A DNA stretch of 64,000 nucleotides, taken from the NCBI RefSeq assembly GCF_004010195.1, contig NC_057719.1:11848002-11912001 (forward strand), written 5' to 3'. This document shows, one piece after another, positions 3,621 to 56,747 of this stretch. The notes beneath the pieces were generated by a model, which made no database searches, was not told the origin of the DNA, and saw only the letters and a program-made list of their open reading frames with translations. Every line of letters starts with the position of its first letter. Position 1 is the stretch's first letter. This DNA comes from Chiloscyllium plagiosum. Taxonomy: Eukaryota. Made by a program: the position numbers and the translations under genes.

Positions 3621-4117
3621 AAGGGGCTATATGAGTCTGTTTGATTGTGCCCCAATGTAGTACTGAGCTGATTCTCTGCAGCCCCCTCACTGAGTTGCAT
3701 CATCTGACACACAGGTGCCTGTGTCAGCGAGTTACTGGTTGCTAAGAAACAGTATCAATGCAGCTTCTGGGAGAGTGACCCAGGCAGATCTCATGAACAC
3801 TCCCAGGAGGCTGAGCCTGTCACTTTGGGTTCAGTTGTCAACCTTCTCAGGGTGATACACACCCTGCTGCATTGTACTGTCTCCATTTATATTTCCAGTA
3901 CATGAGGATTGTGCTGCCCTATTGTTTCCAATGATATAGTTTGAGGGTTGTCGAAAAAGGAAAAAGTTGTAAGCTGGGACATATGAACAATTTTGAGGAA
4001 AGAGTACACAAGAACGCTTAATGAAAAATCCAGTACTTATGGTTATCCTACTATTGCCTGATTAATGGCATAAGACTTCCTGGTATTTGGCCATGGAATG
4101 TGTATGTTGTTGGATAG

Positions 4118-4220
4118 AGTCAATATTAGAGTGGTGCTGGAAAAGCACAGCAGGTCAGGCAGCATCCGAGGAGCAGGAGAATTGATGTTTCAGCCAAAAG
4201 CCCTTCGTCAGGAAAGGGCT
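4118..4220 (-). mobile_element. Penelope-like terminal-repeat mini-insertion (family A)
   Basis: gaaaagcacagcaggtcaggcagcatcc core. Flanked by TGTTGTTGGATAG (4105-4117) and TGTTGTTGAATAG (4221-4233). Confidence 0.75.
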
Positions 4221-4260
4221 TGTTGTTGAATAGGCCAGTATGTCTTGAACATCCTTCTTC

Positions 4261-4470
4261 AATCACAGAAATTATTAGAAAAGCTCAGCAGGTCTGGCAG
4301 CATCTGAGAAGAGAAATCAGAGTTAATGGGTCCAGTAACTCTTCCTCAGAACTGATGGTAGCTTGGGAAATGTCAGTTTTTATGGAGAAGATAGGGTTGG
4401 GTGGAGGGAATAAGGAGTAAATGATCGGTGCTTGGGGATAGAGCCCAAAAAGAGAGAACAGTTGAACAGT
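4261..4470 (-). mobile_element. Penelope-like terminal repeat (family B), decayed
   Basis: aaagctcagcaggtctggcagcatctg...cagagttaa...ctcttcctcagaactg, shared with copies at 34180, 43670, 50896, 51680, 54951 and 61147. Confidence 0.65.
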
Positions 4471-4669
4471 GTGATGTGGCTGTGGAAACAAGTTTTAGCA
4501 AATACCTGGTCAAACACCAGCAGCAACAATGAAATTAATGTCAGTGGACAACAGAAAAGATTGGAATGGACATCCTGTCGGAGAGGGGAGCAGAACTTCT
4601 TTAAGATGGCTATGTCTAGAAGAGAAGTGGCAAGAAGTTAAATATTAAATAAAAACCAAAAGAACTGCG

Positions 4670-5800
4670 GATATACCTTTTTAAACTGCTGCAGTCCTTG
4701 AGGTGACAGGTGCTCTTTTGAAGGGAGTTCCAGAGTTTTGATCCAGTGATAGTGAAAGAATAACGATATAGTTCCAGATTACAGTGGTGAGTGGCTTGGT
4801 AGGGAACTTGCAGGTGCTGGTGTTCCCATGTTATTGCTATTCTTGTCCTTCTGGATGGCAAAGGTCGTGAGTTTGGAAGGTGGCCTGAGATGATCCTTGG
4901 TGAGTTATTACAGTACATCTTGTAGATGGTTCACAATGCTGCCACTCCAAGTGGTGGGATATTGAAAGTAGTAGGTGTGATGCCAATTATGCAGGCTGCT
5001 GTGTTCTGCATGATGCAAGCATCTTGAGTGTGATTGCAGTTGCACTCATCTGGGCAAGTGGAAAGTGTTCCATCACACCCCTGACTTGTACCTGTAGACA
5101 GGAATCAAAAGATGAGTTCCTCACTGCAGAATTTCCTGGCCTCCTGATTTGTTCTTGTAGCCACAGTATTTATAGGGCTAGGCCAGTTCAATTTCTGGTC
5201 AATGATAACCCCAGGATGTTGATAGTGGGAGTGGTACTTCTGCCAATGCTTGTCATGGGGCAATGATTAGATTTTCTCTTATTGGGAATGGTCATTGCTT
5301 AGCACTTGTGCGGCACAAATGTCATTTATCACTTCTCAGCCCTAGCCTGGATATTAACCAGATCTTACAGCATATGGACACAGGTTGTTTCAGTATGTGA
5401 GGAGTTGCAAGTGGTGCTTAACATTATGCAGTCATCTACAAACATCTCCATTTCTGACCTTATGATGGAGGGAAGGTCAATGATCAAGCAGTTGAAGATG
5501 GTTGGCCTGGGACACTGCCCTGATGAACTCCTGCAGAGACTCTGTGAACCTGAGGTAACTGACTTCTACCAAACCATCTTCCTCGGTGCAAAGGTGTGAT
5601 TCCAATGAGAGCTTCCCCCTCTTTCCCATTGACTCCAGGTTTGCTAGGACTCCTTGGTTTCAAGCACAGTCATTCTCACATCTCTGAAGTTCAGCTCTTT
5701 CATACATGTTTGAACCAAGGTTGTATGAAGTCAGGAGCTGAATATCCCCAGCAGAACACAAATGAACATCAGTGAGCAGGTTATTGCTGAGTAAGTACCA
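4670..5800 (-). mobile_element. Decayed LINE of a second CR1/L2-group family
   Basis: Homologous to 29540-30760 (gggaacttgcaggtg-tggtgttcccatg and other blocks). That copy encodes NYCPISL...AQFGF-QNHSAPDLITA RT motifs. Confidence 0.7.
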
Positions 5801-53420: not shown

Positions 53421-53500
53421 CTCTGCTGCAGCATTCTGTGTTTATGTCATTGCAAACCCGTTCTTATGGCGCCCTCACTTTTTGTTTTCCTATCCCACAG

Positions 53501-54018
53501 AAGTGGACAGCTGCGACAAATGGTTGAACTGCAAGAGTGAATTCCTGAAGAAGTACCTCATGAAAGCGCTGGCCGACCTCCCGAGCTGTCCTTGCACCTA
53601 CCCGACCGAGGCGGTGTACAGCGTCGTCAGCGTCCGCGAGGACGGCAAAGGCAGGTTCTTCCGTTGGCGGGACGCGAGCGGGCCCAAGGAGCGCCTCGAC
53701 ATCTACAAGCCGAGCTCCAAGTTCTGCATCCGCTCCATGCTCTCCCTGGACAGCACCACCCTGGCGGCCCAGCACTGTTGCTATGACGACCAGATGCGGC
53801 TGATCACGCGGGGCAAGGGCGCGGGGGCGCCGAACCTGATCAGCACGGAGTTCTCGCCCGAGCTGCACTACAAGGTGGACGTGTTGCCATGGATACTGTG
53901 CAAGGGAGACTGGAGCCGGTACAACGCGGTGAGGCCGCCCAACAACGGCCTCAACTGCTCCGAGAACCCTCCGGAAGACGATTATGCGGCCCAGCTGAAG
54001 GAAGCGAAGGAGTATTGA
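53501..54018 (+). CDS. ism2: Isthmin terminal coding exon encoding the AMOP domain ([14 protein letters not shown]...QLKEAKEY*)
   Basis: Polypyrimidine acceptor ends cccacag at 53500. [45 protein letters not shown] and the terminal EAKEY-stop are isthmin AMOP hallmarks. Confidence 0.95.
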
Positions 54019-54950
54019 AAAGGAGGGGGGCAAGCAGCGGGTCTCCGGAGAGTTGAGGATGGAGAGAGAAAGGACGTTTACTTTTAAAATATGGCGATCT
54101 CCGCCGCGAGCCCAACCTCCGACTCCCATTCGCCAACGGTTGCTTGGCAACGCCAAGTGAGATGGTTAGAAACTTCACCGGGATGGCTCTAACTTACACA
54201 CACACACACACATATATACTTGTTCACCTGAAGAGGATAGTTTCAACCCATCAAATGATTGTGCACAAGAGGAAGAAGAGATGCATTTTAAATCCTGCCA
54301 CTGCTGTCTTCTGTGGCCCTGAGTGTTGATGAGAAACGCATTGCTTCAGGCACACGTTCCCACCCCTATTCTCTGGCTTATTCAGTACGCCCCTCAAAAA
54401 TTCAGACTTCTCCCTCTGTCTCATTTACTCCTTCTTGCCCCCTCTCTCCCTCGCCTGCTTTTGTTCTTTTTTTTGCCCCATCTCTCTTGCCCTCTCTTTC
54501 TCTTTTCCTCCTCTCTAACCCTCTGGCTTCCTCTCTTACTCTCCTCGCTCTCTACCTTTTCTCTCACGCAAAGAATTCCTGGTTCCGGCTTTTCCCAGTT
54601 CCACTTCTCACTCTGGCTAAGGAGAGTCTTGGCATTCCGGATCACCTTCCAAACACACATCCAGCGAATCATCAGTGACCTTCATCTCGCTGATTTGTGC
54701 GTGGGGTGAAGAATGCCAATTGATCAGTCCAGGATTCTCTCAAAAGTCTGAATATGAAGTGGATGGTGTCGGTGGGAGGTTGTAGGGAATTCAAAGAATT
54801 GCCATCTGTGGTTGATGATCCATGGGAGATGCCCGAGTGCAAATTGACAGTTGCATCTCTTGCATTCCAGCAATGGCTACAGTCCAAAAGTATTTCATTA
54901 GTTGTAAAACACATTTATCGAGTCATACAGCATGGATGTTCTGAGATTGT

Positions 54951-55108
54951 AACAAAAATAGAAGTTGCTGGAAAAATTCAACAGATCTGGCAACATCCGT
55001 GAAGAAAAATCAGAGTTAACGTTTTGGGTCCTGTGCCAGACCTACTGAGCTTTTCCAGCAACTTCTGTTTTTATTTCTGATTTATAGCATCAACAAATCT
55101 TTCGGTTT
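54951..55108. mobile_element. Fold-back Penelope-like mini-element (family B) inside a decayed Deu-SINE tail
   Basis: agaagttgctggaaaa / ttttccagcaacttct inverted arms. TSD TGTTCTGAGATTGT (54937-54950) and TGTTCTGAAATTGT (55109-55122). Confidence 0.8.
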
Positions 55109-56747
55109 TGTTCTGAAATTGTGGTCGGCAGTACAGAAATGTGATTCTTCTGATGTTGCTATTGCATAGGTTGACTCATTCTGTATCTGTGACAATTCAG
55201 TCAAGTTTAGTTTAAAATCAGAACTCACTCTTTACACTTTATAAATTTTCGCATGAGTGGCTGAATCTACAGAGCTAATGGAGGCATTTGGAGATTACTT
55301 TAACATACGCTGCATACCGTTGTCTTCAGTCTTGCTTCACCGTGTAATCCAATACTGCCGCAAAAGAGCCAAAAGTAAACAGTGAATTTGTTTGAACTCC
55401 CCTTCTGTTAATGTCTGCTTTAAGAAAAACAAACCTCTCTAAACAAGGGTTCACAGCTTCAGTGTGAGAAAACTGGTAGCTGAACGAGAATTCACAGTCT
55501 CCTGCTGGAATCCTGTTTTTACCTGGGACTGATAGCTATGGAATCCCCACCACTATTGGCTTCCTTTTCCTTCCTGTATACATAAGCTTCTACATTCCAG
55601 GCTTTAGGAAGACAGCAGTTCATATTTTTTCTGCTTTGACGGTGTCCTGCTCTGTGGGTGTCATCATGTCTCCTGCACTTTTCAATCAATTGAAAGAGAC
55701 ACAGGCTGCCTTGTAAAGAGAAAAGATCAAAACATTTTATTTTAAATGAAGCGAGGATACAAAAGGGAATCGAATGACATACGAGTCCAGAATATCTCTC
55801 TCAAAACTCTGGCGATGCATTAATGCGAATGGCTCAACGAATTAGAAGTTTGAGGTGTGACACTGAAATGCAGGGGGCTTTCAGGATCTCTGTTTCTCTC
55901 TACTGTCTTCAGAGTTGCGAAATGAATAAGACCAAATGTCACCCTATCCAACTTCCTACCAGCTAGGTAATTGGAGTATACACTAACAATGGATGCTTTG
56001 TTTGCCATTGACTGTAAACCATATGGGACATCATGAGATTGTGATAGGTGCAATATAAATGGAATTTCTTTTTATTCCTTTATCTTTAACAGTGGCCGTC
56101 TGTATAAATTAGCCCATAACAGACCTTAAACAAAATGGGGCAAACTCCAATGATGGAGCGCTAAGGGAATCCTTGATCCAAATTAATCTGTTCTTCGTTG
56201 GAACCACCATGTCATATTGCAAATTTCTCACCATTCCATAAATTATTTTCTGAAATTTATCTAAACTTCTTTCACCGTGGCTCAAGGGTGTCTGTTCCAT
56301 GTATTGAAGCACTCACCCTCTCTACAAAATTCAATCACGGTATATCAATAGGATTTGTGGAGAAAACCATCTCTTTGAAATGTTAGAGAATTTTTTTTAC
56401 CCCGCCAGTTTAATTTAAAAAAAAATACAGTATCAAGCACTGAGTTTCCTAAAATCCTCCAAAACATAAAAGGTCTTTCCAATCAAACATAGTAAAATGA
56501 CACATGACAAATGGACACCATTTAGCCCCCATGGTGCTTGTGTTGTGTTGCAGACAGAACTATCCACTTCGTCACAATTGCACTCTTGCTCTGTAACTCG
56601 GCAAATGTTTTTGATTTCATTTGGAAATCACTATTATAAATCCCAATTGGATGGCTACAGTTCAGAGAAGCAAATGGCTAGCTTCATTGATTAGAATCAA
56701 TTCATTTTTACAGCACACCCAAGGTCACCTGACCATTCACAGCTTTG

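Follow-up and report, generated by a model that had tools for sequence, protein, structure and literature searches.

The 64,000-nt window of Chiloscyllium plagiosum contig NC_057719.1 analysed here (all coordinates are positions within it) is repeat-rich vertebrate DNA with CR1-type long interspersed nuclear element (LINE) pieces, and scattered through it lie very short insertions that consist, as we argue below, of the 3' end of Penelope-like elements (PLEs), most of them folded back on themselves. Nine of these had been described in an initial annotation as independent insertions with long and variable target-site duplications (TSDs), and all nine indeed show direct repeats of 9-16 bp that abut the insert with 0-2 mismatches. 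The TSD lengths, in position order, are 13, 15, 9, 12, 16, 15, 14, 16 and 14 bp (n = 9), and with 3 nt of slack allowed the nine score between 9.5 and 16; among 90 mismatched pairings of left and right flanks the top score was 7.5, and a score of 9.5 or more was obtained at 2 of 3000 random positions in the window. The inserts are made of terminal-repeat sequence only, as had been claimed, and fall into three related subfamilies (A, B and C). Counting positions from C3 of a predicted hammerhead ribozyme core, and distinguishing a short 3' end from a 3' end that carries an additional tail, we can describe the nine as follows:

4118-4220, minus strand: single subfamily-A PLE 3'-end arm with the short end, its 5' end at -3 from the hammerhead C3, followed by a 6-7 nt inverted stub; TSD 4105-4117 / 4221-4233 (12/13)
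10399-10581, unstranded: subfamily-B fold-back, left arm from the short end to position 0, right arm from +38 through the tail; TSD 10384-10398 / 10582-10596 (15/15)
17029-17078, plus strand: fragment from inside the element (about +2 to +55) that lacks both canonical 3' ends; direct repeat of 9 bp, 17020-17028 / 17079-17087
27241-27468, unstranded: near-perfect subfamily-A palindrome, tail on the left arm and short end on the right, both arms reaching -4; TSD 27229-27240 / 27469-27480 (11/12)
35233-35457, unstranded: arranged like 27241 but with more decay (84% similarity between the arms); TSD 35217-35232 / 35458-35473 (14/16)
41311-41416, unstranded: arm with the tail, starting at +38, and a short-end arm of 16 nt, within an older repeat; TSD 41296-41310 / 41417-41431 (15/15)
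50896-50996, minus strand: single subfamily-C arm from the short end to -4, with the TSD directly after it; TSD 50882-50895 / 50997-51010 (14/14)
53269-53373, unstranded: left arm from the short end to +2, interrupted by an internal gap of 17 nt, right arm reduced to a remnant of the tail; TSD 53253-53268 / 53374-53389 (16/16)
54951-55108, unstranded: subfamily-C fold-back, left arm from the short end to about +11, right arm from +50 through the tail; TSD 54937-54950 / 55109-55122 (13/14)

Most of these had been called head-to-head, and two arms are present in six of the nine (10399, 27241, 35233, 41311, 53269 and 54951), the second arm of 53269 being a remnant that was recognised by eye and that the aligner did not detect. 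Single-armed are 17029 and 50896, and 4118 has just its stub. The weakest case is 17029, whose direct repeat overlaps the element's own first bases. Similarity between arms is 77-94%, and the inserts are old. At 41311, two paralogous copies of the host repeat (22109-21986 and 51564-51427) align across the site without the insert; no paralogous empty span was found within the window for the other nine of the ten insertion sites probed.

A BLAST search with pieces of the inserts found 17 loci within the window, eight of which (4261, 34170, 43670, 49083, 51683, 56740, 61149 and 63633) had not been named before; a convincing TSD was found for none of these eight. At 56740 and 63633 the repeat runs on into a pyrimidine-rich untranslated region (UTR) and then into a reading frame that matches a shark PLE protein, P0004, the C-terminus of which aligns on the minus strand to 57126-56995 (E 3e-7) and 63998-63891 (E 3.5e-4). 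Relatives carry RVT_1 and GIY-YIG domains. Because these longer copies join the repeat to a GIY-YIG C-terminus, the inserts are, on sequence evidence, the 3' end of endonuclease-bearing PLEs, and the PLE origin put forward earlier thus stands, with the reading of the nine as independent insertions supported as well; the linkage to GIY-YIG is direct for subfamily B, with subfamilies A and C tied in by DNA likeness only. The elements are putative members of the Penelope/Poseidon clade. Further copies on which the argument draws are:

43670-43872, unstranded: subfamily-C fold-back whose short-end arm reaches -4 and whose tail arm starts at about the hammerhead cut site; TSD not found
49083-49297, unstranded: fold-back, tail arm from +20 and short-end arm from -4 with a short filler between them; no TSD found
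56740-57110, minus strand: longer subfamily-B copy with the end of the GIY-YIG open reading frame (ORF), 3' UTR, hammerhead core (C3 at 56833) and short end
63633-64000, minus strand: second longer subfamily-B copy, layout as 56740, C3 at 63726, running off the window end
57642-58742, unstranded: another PLE family, represented by a 1.1-kb copy whose left arm is inverted and has the short end and whose right arm is in sense orientation and carries the tail; TSD of 14 bp, 57628-57641 / 58743-58756 (14/14)

The last of these, an inverted PLE copy flanked by a TSD, had been overlooked. The inserts hold a predicted minimal hammerhead with the core, one extra base, a helix II of 4-5 bp and a short helix I, core and helix II being present together in the best copies; the sequence of helix II varies by subfamily and its pairing is kept. 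This architecture resembles the minimal hammerheads of metazoan PLEs, which have a CUGANGA-N-helix II-GAAA core, a short helix I and no real helix III, and which are widespread as solo motifs (Cervera and de la Pena 2014, PMC4209133); in the shark a strict core match is found in 10 of the 17 copies listed and fails in 7. Rfam returned no hammerhead family at E up to 1 and five sub-threshold matches, three of them to microRNA models on the 10399 hairpin. An exact motif scan gave 0 matches in metagenome contigs and 0 in viral contigs. In Schistosoma, hammerhead pairs occur on opposite strands 100-700 bp apart; the portions of PMC4209133 that describe them contain no TSD or breakpoint analysis, unlike the shark data.

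The two-armed copies share a layout. In every one of them the 3' ends of the element point outward to the TSDs, one arm ending at the short end (about +88 to +93 from C3) and the other about 40 nt further (+124 to +131), with 3' ends that vary by several nt between copies. The combination of a short end on one arm and a tail on the other is seen in all eight short two-armed copies (the six named above, 43670 and 49083), and in the 1.1-kb copy as well. In five of the eight fold-backs (10399, 43670, 49083, 53269 and 54951) the arms are not nested: each has sequence missing from the other, the short-end arm extending further upstream and the tail being present only on the other arm. The arms of 27241, 35233 and 41311 are nested. 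The template-switch inversion proposed in the initial annotation, if taken as a simple snap-back, therefore fits three of the eight fold-backs and the 4118 stub and fails for the other five, because in a snap-back all of the second arm is already contained in the first, and in these five neither arm contains the other. Non-nested arms require either that initiation took place twice, separately, or that the centre was deleted later, and two initiations, one per end of a staggered cut, explain all eight fold-backs. A separate observation on the 3' ends is that in subfamilies B and C the short end falls on, or immediately precedes, a stretch of pyrimidines that terminates in AG (10399-10410, 43830-43850), an arrangement that is splice-acceptor-like and may be chance.

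An inverted-copy architecture with a one-sided tail has already been published, and the shark inserts are a miniature form of it. Endonuclease-bearing PLEs insert as strongly 5'-truncated copies next to a second, inverted copy that is likewise 5'-truncated, with a tail of 30-40 bp on only one of the two ends and, in the rotifer, TSDs of 8-10 bp (Arkhipova et al. 2013, PMC3846280; Craig et al. 2021, PMC8557442). The shark inserts share with these insertion units, as far as the passages of the two papers describe them, the strong 5' truncation, the inverted 5'-truncated copy and the one-sided tail. They differ in that their halves are only 16-135 nt long and lack the ORF body, in that their TSDs are mostly 12-16 bp, and in having a shared 5'-end hotspot, of which the same passages report none.

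This hotspot emerges when the positions at which the arms stop are compared. The 5' end is set by the TSD or by the opposite arm in 19 arms (six positions being read by eye and entered by hand), and of these eight end at -5 to -3, three at 0 to +2 and eight between +11 and +85; counted by insertion, 6 of 11 end at -5 to -3. In a uniform simulation of 200000 trials, which ignores ascertainment, an equally tight cluster arose 0 times for the arms and 36 times for the 11 insertions. At the centre of 27241 both arms reach -4, and their overlap is a 2-nt self-complementary dinucleotide. The earlier statement that the breakpoint differs in each copy is accordingly only partly true, because 27241 and its decayed version 35233 have the same or nearly the same centre and 50896 abuts its TSD at -4; a cluster of 5' ends lies 3-5 nt upstream of the core. 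Mapping against the cleavage site, which had been proposed as a check, shows breakpoints that are non-random: the hammerhead would cut at +27/+28, one of the 19 arms lies within 2 nt of this site (the right arm of 43673, at about +26) and none ends there, and the copies retain the whole hammerhead, starting about 31 nt upstream of the cut site.

What marks the hotspot? In all five copies that clearly extend upstream of it (56740, 63633, 4261, 61149 and 51683, from two subfamilies) an initiator-like hexamer has its A at -4, for a background of 0.0016 per position, even though B differs from C at -3; the five are related by descent, and helix I constrains some of the motif. No downstream promoter element was seen by eye at the usual distance in two subfamilies. 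Moreover, all three copies tested have a reading frame that starts at an ATG and stays open across repeat and tail, with a 3-nt indel between subfamilies, and this open frame suggests that the region would also be the start of the ORF and hence present at the 5' end of the mRNA.

We also aligned four public sequencing runs to 53100-58900 at 80% likeness: X1, a DNA run; X13; X18; and X21, a raw RNA run from a poly(A) single-cell library of which about 2% was read. Loose ends with poorly agreeing flanks (0.34-0.37) occur at 56836/56837, which is -3/-4 of the 56740 copy, in 25 contigs of X13, 47 contigs of X18 and 122 reads of X21, and are among the best-supported in three of the four runs (best 24 of 2963 loose ends). 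The X21 consensus there includes a piece of opposite-sense core, and 93% of the aligned X21 reads continue into unlike sequence. The repeat is very abundant in the genome, the summed X1 depth over it being about five orders of magnitude above that of the unique flank, a ratio that is not a copy number. Contigs of a second organism, C, about 5% diverged, span the unique flank into the 54951 insert (inside its right arm) and into the 57642 element, so that both insertions appear to predate the split from organism C.

We propose that the inserts are probably the shortest products of ordinary target-primed insertion by endonuclease-bearing PLEs, with an early stop that often falls at the initiator-like motif. 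The GIY-YIG enzyme would make a staggered cut of 9-16 nt, mostly 12-16, and one or both DNA ends would prime reverse transcription at two adjacent internal start sites, namely the end of the pseudo-long terminal repeat (pLTR) and the tail end about 40 nt beyond it. If both ends are primed, two cDNAs would grow inward and be joined by microhomology, leaving outward 3' ends, a one-sided tail and a head-to-head centre. Synthesis would halt early, preferentially 3-5 nt before the hammerhead core, and the likeliest cause of the halt would be that the template RNA begins there, in which case initiation in the 5' repeat copy would run off after about 95-135 nt. The TSDs, the PLE identity, the orientation of the arms, the asymmetry of the tail and the 5' hotspot are observed in the window; it is dual priming in this shark, and an RNA start as the cause of the hotspot, that we infer. 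Two start sites and extension of both strands have been demonstrated in vitro for an anole element: in the Poseidon element PAc of Anolis carolinensis the hammerhead lies at the pLTR/ORF start, two adjacent internal start sites of the reverse transcriptase (RT) bound the tail, the enzyme, a predicted dimer, cuts and extends both target strands, and hammerhead cleavage is not required for insertion (Frangieh et al. 2024, PMC11167929). The PAc start region, as computed from that paper, lies 85-92 nt after the cut site, and the two shark ends about 61-66 and 97-104 nt after it. The PAc data are in vitro, and the portions of PMC11167929 drawn on here describe neither tiny two-armed genomic products nor the points at which copies stop.

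A more specific version can be formulated, which we hold only tentatively and would sooner bet against. The transcript would start at the initiator 4 nt upstream of the core and yield run-off cDNAs of 95-135 nt; a dimeric enzyme would prime both ends of one staggered cut, one per start site; and the identical cDNA ends would anneal through the 2-nt self-complementary overlap, so that the palindrome is built anew at each insertion.

Several observations weigh against our proposal or its details. Several arm ends were read by eye, and three subfamily-C copies (34170, 43673 and 50896) have T instead of A at -4. In the DNA run X1, -3/-4 is present only as joints and is not among its six listed loose-end sites, and the loose ends of the other runs could come from subfamilies with diverged upstream sequence. 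The raw RNA of X21 shows no pile-up of molecule starts or ends, and no RNA 5' end was observed in it, for a poly(A) single-cell library read to about 2%. A search for proteins beginning with the putative N-terminal peptide encoded by the repeat, in itself a weak test, gave none with E up to 10. Penelope of D. virilis does have an internal promoter with an initiator; its transcription starts about 120 nt upstream of the hammerhead, from which it is separated by an intron of 75 nt: the start precedes this intron by 46 nt, and the intron ends at helix I, according to the portions of PMC2377424 and PMC4209133 that treat it. An empty orthologous site, which the initial annotation had named as a check, is not found among the joints listed (best 15 of 399). 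Finally, 4118 and 17029 have one side without a canonical 3' end; with a short inverted stub in the former, and an internal piece with microhomology to the target in the latter, they look like aborted or repair-finished events.

How else could such inserts arise? One could keep dual-ended PLE insertion and assume instead that the hotspot is a structural stop on a longer RNA, the RT stalling or coming off the template at the 5' boundary of helix I or, alternatively, at a splice junction in that place. Position -4 coincides exactly with the 5' edge of the 3-4 bp helix I, the longer copies show that the RT can pass the hotspot, the D. virilis intron ends at the 5' end of helix I (in the parts of PMC4209133 concerned), and a run of pyrimidines with AG at -4/-3 is present in one subfamily. 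On the other hand, this AG is missing from subfamily B; helix I is weak, and folding of the region does not surpass that of shuffled sequences (none of six single arms, z from +0.56 to -1.25); and a stop imposed by a helix should lie 3' of it, close to the cut site, at which just one of the 19 arms ends. We consider a structural or splice-related stop doubtful, and give run-off at an RNA 5' end somewhat better odds. If the tiny forms, or at least the unequal arms, had instead arisen by microhomology-mediated loss of centres from longer inverted copies or perfect palindromes, one would understand the 1.1-kb inverted copy with its TSD, the age of the arms and the clear internal gap of 53269, and microhomology deletions in PLE copies have been described (passages of PMC3846280). 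Such collapse leaves unexplained both the single arm of 50896 that ends at -4 directly on its TSD and the perfect centre of 27241 at -4, and no long allele of an insert was seen among the alignments listed, which is a weak test; we regard it as improbable.

The remaining alternatives assign the inserts to a mobile unit of their own. The initial annotation had suggested retrozyme-like mobilisation of ribozyme-cut RNA, and the 5' ends speak against it: templates cut by the ribozyme are disfavoured because 8 of 19 arms end 3-5 nt before the core and a single arm falls at the cut site. Non-LTR retrozymes, as described in part of a recent report (Li, Clavereau, Pollet 2026, 10.64898/2026.07.22.740005), are head-to-tail tandem units with a hammerhead in each, short, non-coding, of type I and derived from PLE pLTRs. 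The shark inserts are likewise short, non-coding and pLTR-derived with a type I hammerhead, but they are solo or head-to-head; they are not retrozymes by that definition, because none of the seven tandem arrays in the window is a hammerhead array and the ends of the inserts are not at cut sites. More broadly, a dedicated non-autonomous unit, either a retrozyme-like RNA or a self-copying palindrome of about 225 bp, might be moved in trans by PLE enzymes. In its favour are the layout and centre common to 27241 and 35233, head-to-tail dimers of about 90 nt (87-91 nt) in two single X18 contigs of organism C, and the report, in the same source, of pLTR-related retrozymes from one chondrichthyan genome. 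Besides the ends and the lack of hammerhead arrays, the variation of the 3' ends by several nt and the presence of the pattern in at least three subfamilies argue against it, as does the left arm of 35233, which is no closer to the like arm of 27241 (0.84) than to the other (0.86), and we think such a unit quite improbable. MITEs (miniature inverted-repeat transposable elements) moved by a DDE transposase would match the small size, inverted arms and flanking duplications. This seems barely credible for TSDs of 9-16 bp, unequal termini with a one-sided tail, single-armed copies, and a sequence that is the 3' end of an RT/GIY-YIG element; the variable TSDs, unequal termini and single-armed copies bear out the earlier judgement that these are not DDE-type MITEs.

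At issue is how PLEs complete their insertion, and why inverted copies and one-sided tails remain. Many minimal products with readable TSDs allow one to count stagger lengths, the use of the two start sites, stop points and the joining of halves, and if our reading of start sites and two-ended priming is true, the stubs are a genomic record of both. A practical concern is that annotators may take such hairpins for MITEs or for precursors of microRNAs, as the sub-threshold Rfam matches on 10399 illustrate. A literature search that was light on subscription papers, supplements and Repbase/Dfam entries yielded no earlier account of tiny PLE inserts that fold back, or of the hotspot; the parts of PMC5753468 consulted add nothing further on palindromes.

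Several other PLE remnants lie in the window. Two hammerhead-bearing families occur beyond A, B and C, one being the 57642-58742 element and the other a repeat family at 20112-20195 and 47364-47443, the latter copy of which ends about 1 nt upstream of the core. At 4118-4359 the subfamily-A stub has inserted some 30 nt away from where an older subfamily-C copy has its 3' end, and both have the same orientation. The best protein matches of a PLE RT fragment in the window are in Chiloscyllium, Rhincodon and Stegostoma. A decayed PLE body at 27590-28812 has an internal inversion, its RT part on the minus strand (28501-27590) abutting, without overlap, a GIY-YIG part on the plus strand (28504-28812), which resembles the inversions of L1 twin priming; we considered the RT fragment 27590-28501 as the body of the 27241 palindrome and rejected it, because the TSD encloses the palindrome alone. 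Two X18 joints, each from a single contig (56834/58443 and 58696/55034), connect ends of different PLE families and are possibly chimeric fold-backs, their short sides making them weak.

The last coding exon of an AMOP-domain gene, which we take to be isthmin-like, lies at 53501-54017, and the 53269-53373 insert sits about 110 nt upstream of its acceptor. An X13 contig joins this exon to 61 unaligned letters, consistent with splicing, if our guess that X13 is RNA holds. Since further X13 contigs cover the region downstream of the exon up to 56795, the 54951 hairpin may lie inside a long 3' UTR of this gene. A 75-N assembly gap (33371-33445) falls inside a CR1-type LINE copy, and about 190 nt at 55545-55732 are skipped by an organism C contig, indicating a lineage-specific insertion or deletion.

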